DNA from: Escherichia phage vB_EcoP_KAW1A4500
Strand: one strand, 5' to 3'
Sequence record: MK373773.1
Length of the DNA stretch: 44,241 nt
The translations under genes and the position numbers were made by a program. Positions 2,955-38,460 of this stretch are shown here, in pieces. Below the pieces are notes generated by a model. The model had not been told where the DNA came from, ran no database searches, and was given only the letters and a program-made list of their open reading frames with translations. Within the stretch, counting starts at the first letter, position 1. Each line of letters starts with the position of its first letter.

Positions 2955-3839
2955 ATGACTACTGAAAACACCCTCCTGTCTGTCCGCGAAGCTGCAACCG
3001 CTGAGATTAAGCAGCATTTGGATAATATCGGCACTTCTTACATCAAAGTAGGTGCTTGTCTGAATGAGTTACGCGGAGACTTCGAAGGTCAAAAAGAGTT
3101 CTTAGCCTATGTTGAAGCAGAGTTCGGCATCAAGAAAGCACAATGCTACAAGCTGATGAGTGTAGCCCGTGTCTTTGAAGGTGACGAACGATTCAAAGGC
3201 GTGGCTATGCGTGTAATGCTGGCGCTTGTTCCTTTCGCTGATGAGAGTATCATCATGGAGAAGGCCGCAGAACTTGCCGCAGAGGGCAAGCTGGACACTA
3301 ACGCCGTAAACGCCCTAATTGAGTCTAAGAAAGAGCCAAAGGCCGAGACGGTACAATCTAAGGCTGAGCCAGTAAAACCGCAGGAGAACGCGGCTGAGGC
3401 CGCAGAATCACAGGAAACGCAAGCGCCGCAGGTAGTGCCGCCAATGAGTGAGCCGGACACCGACGAATCCGCACAGTGGGAGGGCGAAAGCAAGCCGGAA
3501 GCACCTAAGGCTGCGCCTCTGGACAACACTGCTAACACAGAGAACGCCGCCATGGCTGGCCTGTTGGCACAAATTAAGGCACTGACTGAGCAATTACAGG
3601 CGGCTAACGACCGCATCGCAGCTCTAACCAGTGCACGTGAAAGCAAGAAGGCAGCCGCGCCTATGCTCCCACAATTCAAATCCAAATGTTTCTATGCTCG
3701 CTTGGGTTTGAGTGCTGAGGAGGCAGAGAAGAAAACAGCAGTGAACAAGGCACGCCGCGAACTGGTTAAACTGGGATACGGTGAAGGCCATGAGGCATGG
3801 CCCTTAATCTCTGAGGCAGTAGAAGAATTAACTAAGTAA
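2955..3839 (+). CDS. Early protein of unknown function (294 aa): HTH-like N-domain, Pro/Glu/Ala-rich linker, coiled-coil C-domain
   Basis: ORF track 2946..3839 with ATG at 2955; sits where T7 has gene 0.7 but shows no kinase-like sequence. Confidence 0.65.
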   Translation: MTTENTLLSVREAATAEIKQHLDNIGTSYIKVGACLNELRGDFEGQKEFLAYVEAEFGIKKAQCYKLMSVARVFEGDERFKGVAMRVMLALVPFADESIIMEKAAELAAEGKLDTNAVNALIESKKEPKAETVQSKAEPVKPQENAAEAAESQETQAPQVVPPMSEPDTDESAQWEGESKPEAPKAAPLDNTANTENAAMAGLLAQIKALTEQLQAANDRIAALTSARESKKAAAPMLPQFKSKCFYARLGLSAEEAEKKTAVNKARRELVKLGYGEGHEAWPLISEAVEELTK

Positions 3840-3902
3840 CCTTATCGGTGGCATCTTCTTAGGTGTCACCTATTAAGGTTTCTTTCACTAGGAGTAAACA
3901 AG

Positions 3903-6528
3903 ATGCAAGACCTACACGCTATTCAACTTCAACTTGAAGAAGAAATGTTTAACGGCGGTATCCGTCGCTTTGAAGCGGACCAACAACGCCAGATTGCATC
4001 CGGTAATGAATCAGACACGGCATGGAATCGCCGTTTATTGTCCGAGTTAATCGCGCCAATGGCTGAAGGTATTCAGGCATACAAGGAAGAGTATGAAGGT
4101 AAAAGAGGCCGTGCACCGCGTGCATTAGCTTTCATTAACTGCGTAGAAAACGAAGTGGCAGCATATATCACGATGAAAATCGTTATGGATATGCTGAATA
4201 CAGACGTTACCTTACAAGCAATCGCTATGAATGTAGCGGACCGCATCGAAGACCAAGTACGTTTTAGCAAGCTGGAAGGTCACGCAGCTAAGTACTTTGA
4301 GAAAGTGAAGAAGTCGCTTAAGGCTAGCAAGACTAAATCTTATCGTCATGCGCACAACGTAGCGGTAGTAGCTGAGAAATCTGTTGCTGACCGTGACGCG
4401 GATTTCTCCCGTTGGGAGGCATGGCCTAAAGATACCTTGCTACAAATCGGTATGACCTTGCTAGAAATACTGGAAAATAGTGTATTCTTCAATGGTCAGC
4501 CTGTCTTTCTTCGCACCTTGCGCACTAATGGTGGCAAGCATGGCGTTTACTACTTACAGACCAGTGAACACGTAGGGGAATGGATTACAGCATTTAAAGA
4601 ACATGTAGCGCAACTTAGCCCGGCTTATGCACCTTGCGTTATACCTCCGCGTCCGTGGGTTTCTCCTTTTAATGGCGGTTTTCACACTGAGAAGGTAGCA
4701 AGTCGTGTGCGTCTTGTTAAAGGCAGCCGTGAACGTCCGCAAGCTGACCAAAAAGCAAATGCCAGCGGTTTACAAGGCTGTTAACGCTTTGCAGGCGACT
4801 AAATGGCAGGTTAACAAGGAAGTTTTACAGGTTGTTGAGGACGTAATACGGCTTGATTTAGGCTATGGCGTACCTTCCTTCAAACCACTCATCGACCGCG
4901 AGAACAAGCCAGCTAATCCGGTGCCGTTAGAGTTCCAGCACCTGCGAGGCCGTGAACTGAAAGAAATGTTAACACCGGAACAATGGCAAGCCTTCATCAA
5001 CTGGAAAGGTGAATGCACCAAGCTGTATACCGCTGAGACTAAGCGCGGCAGCAAATCGGCGGCGACCGTCCGCATGGTAGGGCAGGCCCGTAAATACAGC
5101 CAATTTGACGCAATATACTTCGTGTATGCTCTGGACAGCCGCAGCCGCGTCTACGCGCAATCTAGCACGCTCTCTCCGCAATCAAACGACTTAGGCAAGG
5201 CATTGCTCCGTTTTACCGAAGGGCAGCGTCTTGATAGCGCTGAGGCGCTTAAGTGGTTTTTGGTGAACGGGGCTAATAACTGGGGTTGGGATAAGAAAAC
5301 TTTTGACGTGCGCACCGCTAACGTGCTGGATAGTGAATTTCAAGACATGTGCCGCGACATTGCAGCGGATCCGCTGACCTTCACTCAATGGGTAAATGCC
5401 GACTCCCCTTACGGCTTCCTTGCATGGTGCTTTGAATATGCGCGTTATCTGGATGCACTGGATGAAGGCACGCAAGACCAATTCATGACGCACCTCCCAG
5501 TCCATCAAGATGGTAGTTGTTCTGGTATCCAGCACTACAGTGCTATGCTACGCGATGCAGTAGGTGCGAAAGCGGTAAACCTTAAGCCCTCTGACTCACC
5601 TCAAGATATTTATGGTGCCGTTGCGCAGGTAGTAATTCAGAAGAATTATGCATACATGAATGCAGAGGATGCGGAAACCTTCACTTCTGGCAGCGTGACT
5701 TTAACAGGTGCAGAACTTCGTAGCATGGCTAGTGCGTGGGATATGATAGGAATCACTCGCGGCCTGACCAAAAAGCCTGTAATGACACTACCTTATGGCA
5801 GCACACGTCTAACCTGCCGTGAATCAGTGATTGATTATATCGTTGATTTGGAAGAAAAAGAGGCCCAACGGGCTATTGCGGAAGGGCGTACCGCCAATCC
5901 TGTACATCCTTTTGATAATGACCGCAAAGACAGCCTGACACCTAGCGCAGCTTATAACTATATGACAGCTTTAATCTGGCCTTCTATTTCGGAAGTGGTT
6001 AAAGCTCCTATAGTGGCAATGAAAATGATTCGTCAGCTTGCACGTTTCGCAGCTAAAAGAAACGAAGGCTTAGAATATCCCTTACCAACTGGCTTCATCT
6101 TGCAACAAAAGATAATGGCTACCGATATGCTCCGCGTATCCACTTGCTTGATGGGTGAAATCAAGATGAGTCTCCAGATTGAAACAGATGTAGTTGATGA
6201 AACGGCAATGATGGGTGCGGCTGCTCCTAACTTCGTCCATGGTCACGATGCTAGCCACCTGATTCTGACTGTATGTGACCTAGTGGATAAAGGTATTACA
6301 TCCATTGCAGTCATCCATGATTCTTTCGGTACTCATGCAGGACGTACCGCAGACCTGCGGGATAGCTTAAGGGAAGAAATGGTTAAGATGTATCAAAACC
6401 ATAATGCCCTGCAAAATCTGCTAGATGTGCACGAAGAGCGTTGGTTAGTAGACACCGGAATCCAAGTACCAGAGCAAGGAGAGTTTGACCTTAACGAAAT
6501 CTTAGTTTCAGACTATTGTTTCGCATAA
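3903..6528 (+). CDS. Phage single-subunit DNA-directed RNA polymerase (SP6-type), interrupted by an apparent frameshift near 4734
   Basis: Two overlapping ORFs (3903..4784 and 4705..6528) together give an RNAP of about 874 aa; N-terminus [19 protein letters not shown] and palm motifs ([21 protein letters not shown]) match SP6-type RNAP as recalled. Confidence 0.9.
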
Positions 6529-6564: not shown

Positions 6565-6602
6565 TTTACCTACTACCTGTAACATTTCATTAACATAAAA
6601 GT

Positions 6603-6618
6603 GTCTCACATGTGAGAC
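6603..6618. promoter_or_regulatory. Perfect 16-bp palindrome GTCTCACATGTGAGAC (family copy 1)
   Basis: Perfect dyad; 2 bp upstream of promoter P1. Family copies at 6794, 9103, 10261, 15203, 31645. Confidence 0.7.
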
Positions 6619-6620
6619 TT

Positions 6621-6659: not shown

Positions 6660-6790
6660 AGAAAGGGAAGATAAAGGATATAAAGGAAGTAATAGGTATT
6701 AAAGGTTATATAGGTTATCTAGGAACACCTAGGAATACCTATTACCTTCTTCCTTCCTCTTATTACCACTTAGAGGAAGGGCAGACCTAG
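6660..6790. other. AT/purine-rich TAGG-repeat element with dyad symmetry; candidate primary replication origin
   Basis: Repeats of TAAAGG/TATAGG/CCTAGG between two tandem phage promoters, downstream of the RNAP gene and upstream of gp1.1-like and primase genes, as at the T7 primary origin (analogy is inference). Confidence 0.4.
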
Positions 6791-6793
6791 GTT

Positions 6794-6809
6794 GTCTCAC
6801 ATGTGAGAC
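6794..6809. promoter_or_regulatory. Perfect 16-bp palindrome GTCTCACATGTGAGAC (family copy 2)
   Basis: Identical to copy 1; 5 bp upstream of promoter-like P2. Confidence 0.7.
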
Positions 6810-6814
6810 TTCGT

Positions 6815-6837: not shown

Positions 6838-6863
6838 ACTAACTCACTTTGGAGATTTTAACC

Positions 6864-6995: not shown

Positions 6996-8084
6996 ATGGC
7001 TATTATTCAGAACGTACCGTGTCCTGCCTGTCAAAAGAATGGACATGATATTACTGGCAACCATCTTATGATATTTGAGGATGGCGCTGGTTACTGCAAC
7101 CGTGGTCACTTCCATGATAACGGCAAGCCTTATTACCATAAGCCAGAGGGTGGCATCGAGATAACCGAATTACCTATTACTGGCAATATCAAATATACAC
7201 CTTCTCAGTTTAAAGAGATGGAGAAGGAAGGGAAGATTAGTGACCCTAAGCTACGCGCCATCGCACTTGGTGGTATGCGTATGAAAGACCGTTGGGAGGT
7301 CATGAATGAGCAAGAAAGGGCAGAACAAGAAGCAGAGTGGAAACTTGATGTTGAATGGTTCCTCACGCTCAAGCGTAAGAACCTTGTATCCCGTCACATT
7401 CGAGGTGACATCGCAGCAATGTACGATGTGCGCGTTGGACACGATGAAGAGGGAAGAGTCAACCGTCACTATTATCCACGATATGAAAAGGGTGTGCTTG
7501 TTGGAGCAAAATGCCGGACGTTGCCGAAGGATTTTAAGTTCGGACACCTAGGTAAACTCTTTGGTATGCAAGACCTTTTCGGTATGAACACTTTGTCTCA
7601 CGTGTTAGACAAGGGAAGACGAAAGGATTGCTTGCTTATTGTGGGCGGCGAACTGGATGCACTAGCAGCACAGCAGATGCTCCTTGATTCTGCCAAGGGT
7701 ACTAAGTGGGAAGGCCAGCCTTACCATGTATGGTCTGTCAATAAAGGTGAGTCTTGCCTTGAAGAGATAGTGCAGAACCGTGAGCATATCGCCCAATTCA
7801 AGAAGATTATATGGGGTTTTGATGGAGATGAGGTGGGGCAGAAGCAGAATCAGCAAGCGGCTCGCCTGTTTCCTGGCAAATCCTATATCCTTGAATACCC
7901 TTCTGGTTGCAAAGATGCTAACAAGGCATTGATGGCAGGGCTAAAGAGTTTGTTGATGCTTGGTTTAATGCCAAGTCATCTGATGAAGTCTTTGGTAGCC
8001 AGATTAAATCTATCGCATCTCAAAGGGATAAGCTCAAGGCTGCACGTCCAGAGCAAGGGTTATCATGGCCTTGGCCTAAGCTGA
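6996..8084 (+). CDS. DNA primase domain of a gene-4-like primase/helicase; ORF tail is out of frame
   Basis: N-terminal Cys4 zinc ribbon (CPACQ...CNRGH) and TOPRIM-like GFDGDE segment up to CKDAN; after about 7932 the homologous reading continues in another frame. Confidence 0.85.
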   Translation: MAIIQNVPCPACQKNGHDITGNHLMIFEDGAGYCNRGHFHDNGKPYYHKPEGGIEITELPITGNIKYTPSQFKEMEKEGKISDPKLRAIALGGMRMKDRWEVMNEQERAEQEAEWKLDVEWFLTLKRKNLVSRHIRGDIAAMYDVRVGHDEEGRVNRHYYPRYEKGVLVGAKCRTLPKDFKFGHLGKLFGMQDLFGMNTLSHVLDKGRRKDCLLIVGGELDALAAQQMLLDSAKGTKWEGQPYHVWSVNKGESCLEEIVQNREHIAQFKKIIWGFDGDEVGQKQNQQAARLFPGKSYILEYPSGCKDANKALMAGLKSLLMLGLMPSHLMKSLVARLNLSHLKGISSRLHVQSKGYHGLGLS

Positions 8085-8927
8085 ACAAGGTAACGCTAGG
8101 TATTCGTAAGAACCAGCTTATCATTGTAGGTGCAGGCTCTGGTGTAGGTAAGACTGAGTTCCTCCGCGAAGTGGTTAAACACCTCATTGAAGAGCACGGT
8201 GAATCTGTAGGCATCATTTCTACAGAAGACCCGATGGTCAAGGTGTCCCGTGCTTTTATCGGTAAGTGGATTGATAAGCGCATTGAGTTACCGCCAACCA
8301 ATGACCCGAAAGAAGACGGATACCGTGAGGTGTTCGACTACACCGAGGAAGAAGCTAACGCTGCCATTGATTATGTGGCTGATACAGGAAAGCTATTTGT
8401 GGCTGACTAGAAGGCGACTATTCTATGGAGAAGGTAGAGCAAACTTGCCTAGTTTGAGGCTATGGGCATTTCTAATATCATCATTGATAACTTAACGGGG
8501 ATTAAATTAGATGAGCGTGCTTTTGGGGAAGGTTGGTGCACTTGATGAATGCGTCAAACGAATTGGTACTATCAAAGACCGACATGCGGTTACGATTTTC
8601 CTTGTCTCTCACCTTACACGTCCTCCGGCAAACCGTACCCAACACGAAGAAGGTGGCGAAGTTATCCTTTCTGACTTCCGAGGCTCAGGCGCTATCGGAT
8701 TCTGGGCATCTTACGCCTTGGGATTGAGCGTAAGAGAACGCTTGATGAAAGGACTACCACGTACATCTCGTGTGTCAAAGACCGCGATCAAGGTATCTAC
8801 ACTGGAAAAGGTCATGCTTAAAGGTGACATTCAGACCGGACGTTTGATGGAACCACAAGCCCGTACTAAGTCATTTGATACAGTGAAGCAAGGCAGCAAG
8901 AGGTGCCTGATTTACCGGACACTATAG
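7922..8927 (+). pseudogene. Helicase domain of gene-4-like primase/helicase, split into at least three frame segments
   Basis: Walker A GAGSGVGKT in frame 2 (open 7922..8407), Walker B-like NIIIDNLTG in frame 2 (8453..8542), HEEGGEV...RGSGAI in frame 0 (8511..8927); stops in all three frames between 8404 and 8510. Confidence 0.8.
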
Positions 8928-8932
8928 AAGAG
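8910..8932 (+). promoter_or_regulatory. Phage RNAP promoter P3 (ATTTACCGGACACTATAGAAGAG)
   Basis: Near-perfect consensus 23-mer overlapping the 3-prime end of the helicase ORF. Confidence 0.8.
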
Positions 8933-8960
8933 AAAACTTTGAAGATGAACAGGAGTTTTA

Positions 8961-9086
8961 ATGGAAATTATTAAAAGTATTGATATCGGTATTGAGATTG
9001 TGATCAGATTATCACGATATGGATTCAAAGCGGTGAAAAATCTGGTTTTCTTATCAAATGTTCTTTATTGTAACACGCTTATCTAG
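8961..9086 (+). CDS. Small hydrophobic protein, hypothetical (41 aa)
   Basis: ATG at 8961 after AGGAG; first ORF downstream of P3; below ORF-track cutoff. Confidence 0.35.
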   Translation: MEIIKSIDIGIEIVIRLSRYGFKAVKNLVFLSNVLYCNTLI

Positions 9087-9102
9087 TGTATTTATCAGGG
9101 CT

Positions 9103-9120
9103 TGTCTCACACGTGAGACA
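9103..9120. promoter_or_regulatory. 18-bp palindrome TGTCTCAC-AC-GTGAGACA (family copy 3)
   Basis: Perfect 8-bp arms with 2-bp centre; GC-rich flanks extend the potential stem; intergenic. Confidence 0.7.
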
Positions 9121-9384
9121 GGCTTATTAAGTACATAAAAAATTGGAGATTGATTATGTATAATTAGTGCAGGTGATTATGTTCGTAACATCAATGCAAC
9201 CTCACGTAGATATCGTTGCCGTGGTACTAATGTAAGTGAAAACAGCTACTATGTAGAGTACAGTAATGGTATTAGACAGGCTTATCAAAAGGAATCAGCA
9301 CATAACTACCTTGAGAAGATTGGAGAGGTAAGCAATCAATGTAAGTGCGTACACGATGAGATTTGCGATAAGTGTGCCCGCCAG

Positions 9385-9816
9385 ATGCATAAAATGCTAT
9401 TATACCCTCTTCGCTATGGTGCTGGCATTCAAACCTTAGCAGAGGCATATGGCAAAGGTAAGACTACACTTAATAAAGATCGCCGCAATGTAATCACTAG
9501 TAAGACTCAAAGTGAAATGATTAAGCAATGTGGCACTGCACTAGGTGTTACGCAGTTTAACACTCGTGCTCTTGGTAAATCCACAGGACAAGCTATGGTG
9601 AAGATTGGTGAAGCCATGATGCACCCAAATGTACCTGTGCGAATCATGGATGTTGACCATGCAATCACAGAACACGGTACACCACGACGTGTAGCTAATA
9701 AGCATTTTGCCGACACTATAGAAGGTATTATCCGTAAGCAAGGGTTGAAAGGTCTTCACCTCTTGAATGGTGAAGAATTACTGTATCTCCCTATTGTTAC
9801 TGAAAAACCTACGTGA
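9385..9816 (+). CDS. Cys-rich protein, hypothetical; ORF may really begin at ATG 9156 (frame break at 9157-9165)
   Basis: ORF track 9385..9816; the same frame is open back to 9154 without a start codon, while a GGAG-preceded ATG at 9156 is one base out of frame. Confidence 0.5.
   Translation: MHKMLLYPLRYGAGIQTLAEAYGKGKTTLNKDRRNVITSKTQSEMIKQCGTALGVTQFNTRALGKSTGQAMVKIGEAMMHPNVPVRIMDVDHAITEHGTPRRVANKHFADTIEGIIRKQGLKGLHLLNGEELLYLPIVTEKPT
9703..9725 (+). promoter_or_regulatory. Weak internal phage-promoter-like site (GCCGACACTATAGAAGG core)
   Basis: Core GACACTATAGAAGG is exact; upstream recognition region has about 3 mismatches; lies inside the 9385..9816 ORF. Confidence 0.25.
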
Positions 9817-9836
9817 ATATTTAAGGAGTGTTAATC

Positions 9837-10052
9837 ATGACTAAAGTTCTAATTTATAAACAACGAGGTCTTAAGGCTTATGCTATTGTAGCACCAAATG
9901 GTGTTAAAAAAGTAAGTTGTAAGCCTCTTGCAATAAAAGGTGCAGGTATGTCTGCTAACTTCCAATTGCAACTTTTTGGCAATTTCACAGAAGCGCAATT
10001 CCGCAATAAACATGAAGTTATTGGTTCTTTTATGGTGAAACATGCAGAATAA
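9837..10052 (+). CDS. Hypothetical protein (71 aa)
   Basis: ORF track 9828..10052; ATG at 9837 with AAGGAG 8 nt upstream. Confidence 0.55.
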   Translation: MTKVLIYKQRGLKAYAIVAPNGVKKVSCKPLAIKGAGMSANFQLQLFGNFTEAQFRNKHEVIGSFMVKHAE

Positions 10053-10251
10053 ACACAGCCTTAAGATGTTTGATGGTCACGAAGACCTGCAAGCACACAT
10101 CACTAACCAAGCCTTCCTGTTTGCACAGTTAACTATGGCTGAAGCAAAGAAGAATAGTCTGACACGTGAGCAGGTTATCAAGGAGGCAACTTGGGAGCCA
10201 CACCAAGGCAAATACATGGGCCAGAGATTTACTGTAACACGCAGTCGATAA
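10042..10251 (+). CDS. Hypothetical protein (69 aa)
   Basis: ORF track; overlaps previous stop; a T7 gp2-like role is possible by position but unsupported. Confidence 0.45.
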   Translation: MQNKHSLKMFDGHEDLQAHITNQAFLFAQLTMAEAKKNSLTREQVIKEATWEPHQGKYMGQRFTVTRSR

Positions 10252-10260
10252 GTAAAGGGT

Positions 10261-10278
10261 TGTCTCACACGTGAGACA
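10261..10278. promoter_or_regulatory. 18-bp palindrome TGTCTCAC-AC-GTGAGACA (family copy 4)
   Basis: Identical to copy 3; 10 bp after the stop of the 10042..10251 ORF. Confidence 0.7.
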
Positions 10279-10308
10279 GCCTTTCATCATATTGATTGGA
10301 GGTACATT

Positions 10309-10416
10309 ATGTCACGTGATTATGATTCTGATTGGGACTACTATGACTCAATGAATCCAAAACCTGAACATTCAGATGATTATTATTGGGTGGAGGAAAT
10401 GTATGAAGACTGTTGA
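10309..10416 (+). CDS. Small acidic protein, hypothetical (35 aa)
   Basis: ATG at 10309 after GGAGG; overlaps the DNA polymerase start; below ORF-track cutoff. Confidence 0.3.
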   Translation: MSRDYDSDWDYYDSMNPKPEHSDDYYWVEEMYEDC

Positions 10417-12949
10417 TTGGAAGAAGGAGGCAGAAGGCCGTATCCTCGTGATGGATGCGGAAGCTAAAGGACTCCTTGACGCTATCCGCTATGGTCATCG
10501 TGAAGATGTGCATATCATTTGCTGCATGGACTTGCTTACTACCGAGGAGTTTCTCTTCTTTGACCCGTATGAGATGCGTGACCCTGAAGCAAGAGAACAC
10601 CTGAAGGAATGGGAAGGTCATCAAGATGGTGACTTGGTTGATGGTGTTAACTTCCTGAAGCACTGTGAAGCTATTGTGTCGCAGAACTTCCTAGGGTACG
10701 ACGGCCTTCTATTTGAGAAAGCATTCCCTGATATCTGGAAAGGCTTTAACTATACCGAGAGACGCGGCAAGGGCAGACTCCGCGCTGACCTGTGTCCGGT
10801 ACGCGTCATGGATACGCTGGTCATGAGTCGCCTGTTAAACCCCGATAGACGCCTCCCTCCGCAAGCATACGCCAAAGGCATGGGTAACGTAGCCCCTCAC
10901 TCAATTGAGGCGCACGGCATTCGTATAGGCCGTTATAAGCCGGAGAACGAGGATTGGTCTAAACTAACTGACCACATGGTACATCGTGTACGCGAGGACG
11001 TGGCGATAGGCCGTGACCTATTCCTCTGGCTATTTAACGGAGAATGGACGGAGCACAAACGCCGTGGCGTGAATAAACGCACTGGCCTAGGTATTGAGAC
11101 AGCCTTCCACATGGAGTCCATTGTGGCGCTGGAGATGAGCCGTCAGGCCGAGCGTGGATTCCGTCTGGATATAGATAAAGCATTAGCACGATGCGAGGAA
11201 TTGGACGCTAAGATTGATGAGACAGTCGCAGCGTTCCGTCCGCACATGCCTATGCGTATCAAGTCTAAACCTTTTAAACCGGAAGAAAAGAATGAAGTAT
11301 GCCAACGCGCAAATGAGTATGGAGCTAGCAACAATATACCTACTGTCCTTGACCCCTCTCACTTTCTTCACGCAGAGAGACGAGGAGATCGCAAGACAGT
11401 ATGGAGTGTCACTACTAAGTCTGGTGATTGGTCGGCTAGCGTCAAGAAAGACTTTCCTCACCTTAGAGGAAACCGTAATGACACGCCAAGCATCAAGTGG
11501 ATTGGCGCTTACTCGCCTGTTACTTTCGAAGAGATTCCCTTGGGTAACAGGGATACAGTTAAGCAAGTGCTCTATGATTATGGATGGAAAGGTGTTGAAT
11601 TTAACGATACCGAGCAAGCGCATCTCGATGAGCATGGCGTATTACCCAAGCCTTGGAGTGGGAAGATAAATGAAAAGTCCCTTACTTTATGGCAAGAGAG
11701 AGCCGCACGTGAAGGTAAAACAGTCCCTGATTGGTGCTTGGGTATCGCTGCATGGTACATACTCGTATCCCGTCGTGGTCAGATCCTCAACCGTGGTGAC
11801 GTTGAAGCCTTCGACCAGAAGGGGGTGTGGCCTTCGCAAGCTGGTATACGAAAGTGTCGCGGCCTTGTACCTGTAGCATTTAACAAGGAGTTAGGAATCA
11901 ATGCGCAGCAATACTACGAAAGGTACGGATGCTGGCCTACGTCAGACAAGGATGACGGAGAATGGCGTGTGCCAGCTATTGCTATTAGTATTGGAACTTC
12001 TACGTTCCGTATGCGTCATCGTAACGTGGTTAATATTCCTGCCCGTGGTTTGTATCCTTTACGTGATTTATTCATAGCCGGTAAAGGTAAGCTAATCCTT
12101 GGTTGTGATGGTGCTGGTCTTGAACTACGTGTACTGTCTCACTTCATGAATGACCCTGAATATCAAGATATTGTACTGCATGGTGACATTCACACCCATA
12201 ATCAAATGAAGGCTGGTCTTCCTAAGCGTGACATGGCGAAGACATTTATATATGCCTTCCTATATGGGTCTGGTATAGCTAACCTTGCAGCAGTATGTGG
12301 TGTTACTGAGGAAGAAATGGAGGAAGTTGTGGCAAGATTTGAGGTTGAACTACCATCTCTTGCACGTCTTCGTGAGAATGTTATCGCACAAGGTAACAAG
12401 TTTGGCTACCTACAAGCACCTGATGGTCATTGGGGTCGCATCCGTATGTCTGGTGGTGAACTTAAAGAGCACACTATGCTTAACGTACTACTCCAGATGA
12501 CTGGTTCTCTGTGTATGAAATACGCATTGGTCAGAGCGTTTGCAGTGATGCGCAAGGAAGGTGTGGCCTTAGATAGCATGGGAAACCCTTGCGGTATAGC
12601 TAACGTGCACGATGAAATCCAGATGGAAGTCCCTGAAGATGAGGTCTTGTATCTCAACTACGACTTGCCTTTCACCTTAGAAGGGTTCGAAACAGAGAAG
12701 GCTGCTGTGAAAGCAGTGTTCGATGCAGAGGAGAAACGTGTTCATGTGGATTCTGAAGGACGTATGTGGTCTGCTGCAAATCTCGTTAGCGTTGATGCTG
12801 ATGCTGGTGTACTTCATTGCCAGCGTCGTTATCACCGTGCAGGGCATATCATTGCCGATGCAATGACTTGGGCTGGTCATTATTTGAAGATGCGTTGTCC
12901 GATGGCAGGTGAGTATAAGATTGGTGCAAGCTGGAAGGAAACACACTGA
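10403..12949 (+). CDS. DNA polymerase, family A with 3-prime to 5-prime exonuclease domain (T7 gene 5 family)
   Basis: ORF track 10376..12949 with ATG at 10403 after GGAGGA; exo motif VMDAEAKGL, motif A GCDGAGLELRVLSHF, motif C VHDEIQ. Confidence 0.9.
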   Translation: MKTVDWKKEAEGRILVMDAEAKGLLDAIRYGHREDVHIICCMDLLTTEEFLFFDPYEMRDPEAREHLKEWEGHQDGDLVDGVNFLKHCEAIVSQNFLGYDGLLFEKAFPDIWKGFNYTERRGKGRLRADLCPVRVMDTLVMSRLLNPDRRLPPQAYAKGMGNVAPHSIEAHGIRIGRYKPENEDWSKLTDHMVHRVREDVAIGRDLFLWLFNGEWTEHKRRGVNKRTGLGIETAFHMESIVALEMSRQAERGFRLDIDKALARCEELDAKIDETVAAFRPHMPMRIKSKPFKPEEKNEVCQRANEYGASNNIPTVLDPSHFLHAERRGDRKTVWSVTTKSGDWSASVKKDFPHLRGNRNDTPSIKWIGAYSPVTFEEIPLGNRDTVKQVLYDYGWKGVEFNDTEQAHLDEHGVLPKPWSGKINEKSLTLWQERAAREGKTVPDWCLGIAAWYILVSRRGQILNRGDVEAFDQKGVWPSQAGIRKCRGLVPVAFNKELGINAQQYYERYGCWPTSDKDDGEWRVPAIAISIGTSTFRMRHRNVVNIPARGLYPLRDLFIAGKGKLILGCDGAGLELRVLSHFMNDPEYQDIVLHGDIHTHNQMKAGLPKRDMAKTFIYAFLYGSGIANLAAVCGVTEEEMEEVVARFEVELPSLARLRENVIAQGNKFGYLQAPDGHWGRIRMSGGELKEHTMLNVLLQMTGSLCMKYALVRAFAVMRKEGVALDSMGNPCGIANVHDEIQMEVPEDEVLYLNYDLPFTLEGFETEKAAVKAVFDAEEKRVHVDSEGRMWSAANLVSVDADAGVLHCQRRYHRAGHIIADAMTWAGHYLKMRCPMAGEYKIGASWKETH

Positions 12950-13065
12950 TGGACAGGTTTGATGTTGTTTGCCTATTCTCTATCTTCTTTCTTATATTCC
13001 TTATGCTTGCTTGCTATGGAAGTATGCGATTAGGTATACCTGATGAAGAGGAGGGTTACGATTGA
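12949..13065 (+). CDS. Small membrane protein, hypothetical (38 aa)
   Basis: ATG overlaps the DNAP stop; hydrophobic core VVCLFSIFFLIFLMLACY. Confidence 0.3.
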   Translation: MDRFDVVCLFSIFFLIFLMLACYGSMRLGIPDEEEGYD

Positions 13066-23476: not shown

Positions 23477-23482
23477 TTCAGT

Positions 23483-23505
23483 ATTTACTGGACACTATAG
23501 AAGGG
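23483..23505 (+). promoter_or_regulatory. Phage RNAP promoter P8 for capsid gene (ATTTACTGGACACTATAGAAGGG)
   Basis: Consensus 23-mer; transcript would begin with a GGGAGA/TCTCCC hairpin (23503..23519). Confidence 0.82.
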
Positions 23506-23555
23506 AGAAAAGCTCTCCCTAGTTATCAATTTGATTTATAAGGAGATTATAATAC

Positions 23556-24764
23556 ATGTCTACACCGAATACTCTGACTAACGTTGCTGTATCTGCATCC
23601 GGTGAGGTTGACAGCCTTCTCATTGAGAAGTTTAATGGTAAGGTCAATGAGCAGTACCTAAAAGGTGAGAACATTCTGTCCTACTTTGATGTACAAACTG
23701 TTACTGGCACTAACACAGTGAGCAACAAATATTTGGGCGAAACTGAGTTGCAGGTGCTAGCACCGGGTCAGTCTCCTAATGCCACCCCTACTCAGGCGGA
23801 TAAAAACCAGTTGGTAATTGATACCACTGTCATTGCTCGTAACACTGTGGCTCACATCCACGATGTACAAGGTGACATCGATAGCCTGAAACCAAAACTG
23901 GCTATGAACCAAGCCAAGCAACTGAAACGTCTGGAAGACCAGATGGCAATTCAGCAGATGCTGTTAGGCGGTATTGCTAACACCAAGGCCAAACGTAACA
24001 AGCCGCGTGTTAAAGGGCATGGCTTCTCTATCAACGTTAACGTAACTGAGAGTGAAGCACTGGCTAACCCTCAGTATGTTATGGCTGCGGTAGAGTATGC
24101 TCTGGAGCAACAGCTTGAGCAGGAAGTGGACATCTCTGATGTAGCTATCATGATGCCGTGGAAGTTCTTCAATGCTCTGCGTGATGCAGACCGAATTGTA
24201 GATAAGACTTACACTATCAGCCAGTCTGGTGCAACCATTAATGGCTTCGTTCTCTCTTCTTATAACTGCCCTGTGATCCCGTCTAACCGATTCCCTACCT
24301 TCGCTCAGGATCAGGCTCACCACCTGTTGTCTAATGAAGATAACGGCTATCGTTATGACCCTATCGCAGAGATGAATGGTGCAGTTGCTGTTCTGTTCAC
24401 TGCCGACGCACTGCTGGTGGGTCGTACCATTGAAGTGACTGGTGACATCTTCTATGAGAAGAAAGAGAAGACTTATTACATTGACACCTTCATGGCTGAG
24501 GGTGCAATCCCTGACCGTTGGGAAGCAGTGTCTGTAGTTACCACTAAACGTAATGCAACTACTGGTGCTGCTGAAGGTTCTGGTGATGATCACGCAACCG
24601 TACTGGCTCGTGCACAGCGTAAGGCTGTATATGTCAAAACCGAAGGTGCTGCGGCTGCATTCTCTGCTGCCCCAGCAGGTATCCAAGCGGAAGACCTTGT
24701 AGCGGCGGTACGTGCTGTAATGGCAAATGACATCAAGCCGACTGCAATGAAACCTGCTGAGTAA
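23556..24764 (+). CDS. Major capsid protein
   Basis: 402 aa; own strong promoter and strong terminator downstream; after scaffold as in T7 gene 10. Confidence 0.85.
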   Translation: MSTPNTLTNVAVSASGEVDSLLIEKFNGKVNEQYLKGENILSYFDVQTVTGTNTVSNKYLGETELQVLAPGQSPNATPTQADKNQLVIDTTVIARNTVAHIHDVQGDIDSLKPKLAMNQAKQLKRLEDQMAIQQMLLGGIANTKAKRNKPRVKGHGFSINVNVTESEALANPQYVMAAVEYALEQQLEQEVDISDVAIMMPWKFFNALRDADRIVDKTYTISQSGATINGFVLSSYNCPVIPSNRFPTFAQDQAHHLLSNEDNGYRYDPIAEMNGAVAVLFTADALLVGRTIEVTGDIFYEKKEKTYYIDTFMAEGAIPDRWEAVSVVTTKRNATTGAAEGSGDDHATVLARAQRKAVYVKTEGAAAAFSAAPAGIQAEDLVAAVRAVMANDIKPTAMKPAE

Positions 24765-38369: not shown

Positions 38370-38460
38370 AGGCCAGATAATAAGAGAAATAATAGGTAAT
38401 ATAGGTTAACCTAGGTTATATAGGTATGCCTTAGTATGGGTGTACTCCTGTACACCCTAT
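38370..38460. other. AT-rich TAGG-repeat element plus 8-bp-stem hairpin downstream of P9
   Basis: AATAATAGGTAATATAGGTTAACCTAGGTTATATAGGTAT resembles 6700..6745 and 13258..13300; hairpin GGGTGTAC-TCCT-GTACACCC at 38438..38457. Confidence 0.4.

Follow-up and report, generated by a model that had tools for sequence, protein, structure and literature searches.

Introduction

Primase/helicase genes closely related to the one described here are known from several Escherichia phages. K1E gp9, mutPK1A2 p11, ACG-C91 gp42 and fTuEco01 QVW53736 (662 aa) represent the same gene at the same genomic position, and their DNA is 95–97% identical to that of phage KAW1A4500. A gene with more than one annotated CDS has also been found at this position in the same genus. 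In ULINTec6 and ULINTec7, the primase/helicase is interrupted inside Walker A (GAGSGV/GKT) by an insertion of 787 nt that encodes an HNH homing endonuclease, and the two exons (aa 1–385 and 386–662) are complete. The insertion occupies 3656–4442 of the ULINTec6 locus (MZ997840.1) and the same coordinates in ULINTec7. When the ULINTec6 locus was searched against Rfam at the gathering threshold, nothing was found; a permissive search alone matched the insertion to a group I intron, below threshold (38 bits, where the gathering score is 50; E = 6e-8). A second HNH gene is located directly 3′ of the ULINTec6 helicase. Several ENA/Logan contigs of 45–46 kb share this arrangement, with the primase/helicase called as 391/399 aa plus 245/248 aa.

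Escherichia phage vB_EcoP_KAW1A4500 (GenBank MK373773) was described by Korf et al. 2019 (PMC6563267). It is a lytic, plaque-forming phage from clinical wastewater (2016, E. coli host), which was propagated, imaged by TEM and tested for host range (PMC6563267). Its genome was reported with 266-bp terminal repeats and a mean coverage of 774x (PMC6563267). The sequencing platforms of that study were PacBio RSII with HGAP3 or Illumina MiSeq with SPAdes; 7–8 barcoded phages were run per SMRT cell on the PacBio RSII, and contigs were re-linearised at recognised physical genome ends (PMC6563267).

The window analysed here is the entire 44,241-nt stretch of record MK373773.1. It corresponds to a complete genome, with end-to-end matches to K1E/SP6-like podoviruses when the region and both genome halves were used in megablast. 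The phage belongs to Autographiviridae, Molineuxvirinae, Vectrevirus, and many annotated phages are 92–97% identical to it by megablast. In this record the primase/helicase gene is interrupted by several changes of reading frame, and their nature is addressed in the present analysis.

Results

The primase/helicase gene lies between a gp1.1-like gene and gp9.5, as in the relatives. In the annotation of MK373773 its pieces appear as three hypothetical proteins (KAW1A4500_00012, _00013 and _00014). The following features were located in the deposited sequence.

6996..8962, + strand: primase/helicase gene, T7 gp4-like, homologue of K1E gene 9; 23 nt fewer than the 1989-nt / 662-aa ORF of the relatives
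6996..7931, + strand: undamaged 5′ part, with a putative zinc-motif region (CxxC/CxxH) followed by the TOPRIM primase domain, to CKDAN; aa 1–315 in one frame, 97% identity
8129..8155, + strand: Walker A (P-loop) GAGSGVGKT, frame 2; aligned to T7 gp4 SGSGMGKS
8474..8500, + strand: Walker B-type segment NIIIDNLTG, frame 2 (ORF 8462–8545); aligned to T7 gp4 VIILDHIS
8595..8708, + strand: helicase motifs IFLVSHLTR, HEEGGEV and FRGSGAIGFWA, frame 0 (ORF 8511–8927)

The first ORF, of 362 aa (6996–8084), stays in the primase frame (position mod 3 = 0) as far as CKDAN (7908–7922); homology is lost just past this motif, at 7932, and the remainder is out of frame. Zinc-type residues can be read from the sequence as C9-x2-C12 and C34-x2-H37. 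Pfam Toprim_2 was detected in the 362-aa fragment at aa 218–312 with 22.8 bits (cut-off 22.1), and the fragment also aligns with the TOPRIM domain of T7 gp4. Frame 2, which carries Walker A, terminates at a TAG at 8408–8410, and stops are present in all three forward frames between 8404 and 8512. The 79-aa and 138-aa helicase fragments, as deposited, gave no match to a Pfam family. The helicase motifs alternate between frames and no continuous DnaB_C/SF4 domain of the T7 gp4 type is present. A single ORF of about 650–670 aa, which is found in all close relatives and in most of the 120 listed homologues, is likewise absent from the deposited gene.

An SP6/K1E-type promoter consensus, GATTTACCGGACACTATAGAAGAG, is present at 8906–8930, within the 3′ end of the primase/helicase CDS. 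The relatives share it, and it presumably serves to transcribe gp9.5 and gene 10.

The deposited gene was aligned to the intact 1989-nt genes of mutPK1A2, K1E and ACG-C91. All length differences from these three genes are deletions in KAW1A4500; ten events account for the 23 missing nt.

7932..7938, + strand: deletion 1, loss of 4 nt, TGGC (one unit of TGGCTGGC), after 7932, with an adjacent A>G at 7938; frame 0 to frame 2
8406..8410, + strand: deletion 2, loss of 1 nt, C of GACCTAG; creates the in-frame TAG at 8408–8410
8450..8451, + strand: deletion 3, loss of 2 nt, AG of CTAGAG
8525..8526, + strand: deletion 4, loss of 2 nt, GT of TTGGTGGG; frame 2 to frame 0
8719..8933, + strand: deletions 5–10, loss of 1 nt (G) at 8719, 5 nt at 8731, 4 nt at 8736, 2 nt (CC) at 8807, 1 nt (G) at 8882 and 1 nt (C) at 8933

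Coding segments between the frame changes are as short as 5–75 nt. The initial annotation, made from the letters of the sequence, had described at least four frame disruptions at 7919–8545. These breaks are real features of the deposited sequence; each coordinate given for them was reproduced, and four of the deletions fall in this interval (at 7932, 8406, 8450 and 8525). The suggestion of a single missing A near 7932 was wrong, because 4 nt are missing there: they were lost from the TGGCTGGC repeat, together with the A>G change. The consequence for the frame is the same.

When the 23 nt were restored from the consensus of the relatives, a 1989-nt, 662-aa ORF without internal stop was obtained, 98–98.6% identical to the proteins of the relatives. 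A single uninterrupted ORF upon correction is the outcome that had been named beforehand as indicating sequence errors, although the length expected then was about 640 aa. In the repaired protein DnaB_C was detected at aa 357–604 with 54.3 bits (cut-off 27). The damaged half contains seven window-specific substitutions. Four of them are free-standing and all four are synonymous; the other three are non-synonymous, and each is located inside or adjoining a deletion event. These three changes are therefore considered part of the same mis-called spots. The signature of a pseudogene, with substitutions alongside the indels, dN/dS moving toward 1 and insertions as well as deletions, was not seen in 8419–9111 or in the damaged half.

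Two independent assemblies, K1E strain KY435490.1 and a Logan contig from SRR33526640, encode exactly the DNA polymerase of KAW1A4500. In both of them the 875-aa RNA polymerase (RNAP), the 662-aa primase/helicase and the 53-aa gp9.5 are intact. Substitutions and deletion events relative to KY435490.1 were counted in three intervals.

8195–9240 (1046 bp): 9 substitutions, 24 deletion events (73 nt)
8419–9111, within 8195–9240 (693 bp): 0 substitutions, 19 deletion events
9836–13000 (3165 bp): 4 substitutions, 0 deletion events

The 9.1-kb alignment to KY435490.1 contains 27 deletion events, and 25 of them are confined to 14% of its length (P = 2e-19). Against the same genome, deletions outnumber insertions by 25 to 1 (P = 8e-7). 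KAW1A4500 is essentially a sequence of the KY435490.1/SRR33526640 type from which bases have been dropped.

The relatedness of KAW1A4500 to individual phages is mosaic. In the RNAP region it is identical to the SRR33526640 contig and nearly identical to KY435490.1. The primase part is nearest to mutPK1A2 and includes a dense block of substitutions at 7400–7600, and from about 8420 to 13000 the genome is again near-identical to KY435490.1. This mosaicism is typical recombination and has no link to the error patch. A chimeric consensus at a recombination breakpoint was considered and rejected; the block divergent from KY435490.1, at about 7300–7700, lies ahead of the first deletion at 7932.

The fragments were also compared with a collection of about 15 billion public proteins. 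The fragment of 138 aa is alone in its cluster, and those of 362 and 79 aa were each found on a single 44,241-bp contig. At 90% identity, the 79-aa fragment falls into a cluster of 538 proteins; those listed are almost all 659–662 aa long. In R4596, a sister Vectrevirus that Korf et al. also sequenced, the genes for RNAP, helicase and gp9.5 are all intact. An artefact of the whole pipeline was rejected on this ground, and the fault is therefore specific to the MK373773 record.

A genome-wide map of small indels was made against four full relatives. The deletions form a patch of about 1.3 kb (7932–9240) with 25 events and 76 nt lost. The part of the patch beyond the ten events in the helicase gene, and three outliers, are as follows.

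8961..9240, + strand: continuation of the patch, 15 events, 53 nt, including losses of 12, 7 and 6 nt
4732..4733, + strand: 2-nt deletion, AC of ACAC, in the RNA polymerase gene (3903–6528), which is left in two frames
9804, + strand: outlying loss of 1 nt (G), altering the last codons of gene 10 (IVTEKPT* versus IVTEETYV* in the relatives)
9828, + strand: outlying gain of 2 nt (GT) in the spacer ahead of gene 10.5

The losses at 8961–9240 damage gp9.5, a 53-aa ORF in the relatives, and a terminator-like palindrome at about 9094–9122. Gene 10 is truncated after its third codon, and what remains of it is a 143-aa ORF at 9385–9816; in K1E and fTuEco01 gene 10 measures about 684 nt. The patch ignores gene boundaries and passes from the end of one gene through a small gene and a terminator hairpin into the first codons of the next. 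Deletion density is maximal at 8975–9060, and the spacing between events widens on either side.

In the RNAP gene, aa 1–277 are encoded in frame 3 and aa 278–875 in frame 1; both parts are 100% identical to fTuEco01 by tblastn. The 2-nt loss at 4732 is probably another consensus error in the record. The indels at 9804 and 9828 may be errors or real variants. Window-specific indels at 6856, 18420, 23477–23555 and 38372–38394, all intergenic, and those at 24586–24681 in the major capsid gene may represent natural variation and were not counted as errors. The 3′ end of the capsid gene (24560–24700) is highly divergent from the four relatives, with several indels of which those at 24586–24681 are window-specific, and its ORF is intact. 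The divergence of the capsid C-terminus looks like natural variation, not error.

The initial annotation had held that the indel density is local, with DNA polymerase, portal, capsid, ejection proteins, terminase and endosialidase all intact. Gene-by-gene tblastn with the fTuEco01 proteome bore this out for the genes listed, and the tail genes proved intact as well. The damage is nevertheless wider than the helicase domain, as the patch runs from 7932 to 9240 into gp9.5 and gene 10 and a separate frameshift is present in the RNAP gene at 4732.

Near-perfect palindromes (TGTCTCACATGTGAGACA and variants) were observed between early genes, at 6600–6620, 6790–6812 and 9094–9122. Palindromes of the TGTCTCACATGTGAGACA type are often located directly upstream of SP6-type promoters (ATTTACCGGACAGTATAGA...), and in R4596 the corresponding site carries the annotation of a putative terminator.

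Discussion

The frame breaks in the primase/helicase gene of KAW1A4500 are in all probability local sequencing or assembly consensus errors in MK373773 and not mutations of the phage. This reading is drawn from comparison of sequences and from the fact that the isolate is viable. Deletions are found without substitutions and without insertions, they disregard gene boundaries, their density follows a gradient and a second essential gene is also broken; such a pattern fits consensus error and does not fit mutational decay. The single-subunit RNA polymerase and the replicative helicase are both essential in the T7 supergroup. A phage that forms plaques and can be propagated is therefore incompatible with the loss of both. 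The real KAW1A4500 almost certainly encodes a normal 662-aa primase-helicase of the T7 gp4 type.

Long-read contig ends and unpolished stretches obtained with PacBio RSII and HGAP are deletion-prone and yield spurious frameshifts. In KAW1A4500 a stretch of about 1.3 kb (7932–9240) would have been called from poor or sparse evidence, with an error mode producing deletions only. Twenty-five such deletions would have removed the 76 bases from the helicase half of gene 9, from gp9.5, from the terminator and from the start of gene 10, and the RNA polymerase gene would have lost 2 nt separately. The most likely cause, we infer, is that a long-read contig (PacBio RSII/HGAP) had poorly polished ends, which re-linearisation moved to an internal position. 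The density peak at about 8975–9060, which decays in both directions, fits such contig ends. The mechanism is put forward as an inference because the paper gives neither the platform used for this phage nor its local coverage. Some observations stand against consensus error. With a mean coverage of 774x a low-quality patch is surprising, unless coverage was locally poor or the stretch was unpolished. The losses of 12, 7 and 6 nt exceed what is typical of errors in polished long reads, and the clean sequence of R4596 speaks against a failure of the pipeline in general.

A heterogeneous template would also give a faulty record. Two Vectrevirus variants, or barcode bleed among the 7–8 pooled phages, could have been collapsed into a deletion-ridden hybrid consensus. 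Mobile elements do occupy this region in relatives, as seen from the HNH-bearing intron of the ULINTec6 helicase and the further HNH gene right after it; libraries of 7–8 phages shared a SMRT cell and a second Vectrevirus was part of the study; and genomes of the genus are mosaic around the helicase locus. Against this, the patch equals KY435490.1 apart from the deletions, with 0 substitutions in 693 bp and no mixed haplotypes, and consensus callers normally follow the majority haplotype. A mixed template is accordingly considered unlikely, and the lesser alternative to contig ends as a cause. In that event, which is unlikely to the same degree, the record would remain an artefact, though one obtained from a mixed stock.

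Readings in which the deletions exist in the DNA of the phage have to account for the same pattern. The breaks are present in the deposited sequence, and a defective genome with inactive helicase, gp9.5, gene 10 and RNAP, complemented by an intact co-infecting phage, could in theory be carried along when the multiplicity of infection is high. Such a genome must, however, make up most of a plaque-derived lysate, at 774x, without any intact haplotype having been assembled. Its fragments occur in no other public record. It would also carry 25 deletions, no insertions, 0 substitutions over 693 bp and free-standing changes that are synonymous only, which is unlike relaxed selection. We regard real deletions of this kind as very improbable. 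Still more improbable is that the record is accurate in the full sense, that is, that the stock was dominated by a replication- and transcription-defective Vectrevirus complemented by a minor, intact co-infecting variant; if true, it would represent a natural defective-interfering or satellite-like phage of the T7 supergroup. A genuinely split or recoded gene, whose product would be made by programmed ribosomal frameshifting or as two polypeptides, a primase and a helicase, is the hardest of all to credit. The genus does offer precedents, as the K1E terminase is annotated as 40A/40.5/40B and the primase/helicase of ULINTec6/7 is broken inside Walker A. That genuine split, however, consists of one clean insertion with seamless exons, whereas KAW1A4500 has no insertion and is, on balance, short of 23 nt, lost at 10 sites. 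At all of these sites the aligned relatives, KY435490.1 and the Logan contig keep their frame; the frame changes are separated by coding segments of 5–75 nt, and the helicase fragments lack a Pfam domain. Programmed frameshifting was rejected, as no shift site is conserved in the aligned relatives, and so was a split by an intron or homing endonuclease gene, the gene being 23 nt shorter than its intact homologues and free of inserted DNA.

With consensus error as the preferred reading, the broken helicase is, with near certainty, not a biological feature, and the primase-helicase of this phage is an ordinary one. MK373773 and the UniProt entries derived from it would then contain at least three spurious hypothetical proteins (QBQ76718–20), a split RNAP and a damaged gp9.5 and gene 10. 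Entries of this kind raise counts of orphan proteins and skew pangenome, clustering and taxonomy metrics for Vectrevirus, and the fragments could pass for gene decay or for split helicases. An error patch can be told from a real pseudogene by many deletions without substitutions relative to a near-identical genome; disregard of gene boundaries and damage to other essential genes are further signs. MK373773 and its derived protein entries merit flagging for correction.

Compared with known systems, the deposited gene differs from K1E gp9, mutPK1A2 p11, ACG-C91 gp42 and fTuEco01 QVW53736 in that 23 nt are missing at 10 sites, and it reads as a 362-aa primase followed by short helicase fragments. 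The repaired protein aligns with T7 gp4 structures (PDB 5ikn, 6n7i, 1q57, 1e0j, 1cr0) over the TOPRIM and SF4 helicase domains (aa 215–607, E = 1.7e-23), and the Walker A, Walker B, HEEG and RGSGA motifs of T7 gp4 are conserved in it. Unlike T7 gp4, of which it is a distant homologue, it is about 100 aa longer and belongs to an SP6-like lineage. Some of the losses in KAW1A4500 (12, 7 and 6 nt) are larger than the usual long-read errors. In other respects they resemble the errors of long-read-only assemblies: they are deletions only, often in short repeats or homopolymers (TGGCTGGC, AGAG, ACAC, CC, GGGG), and the patch is sharply localised, shows a gradient, ignores gene boundaries and is free of substitutions.
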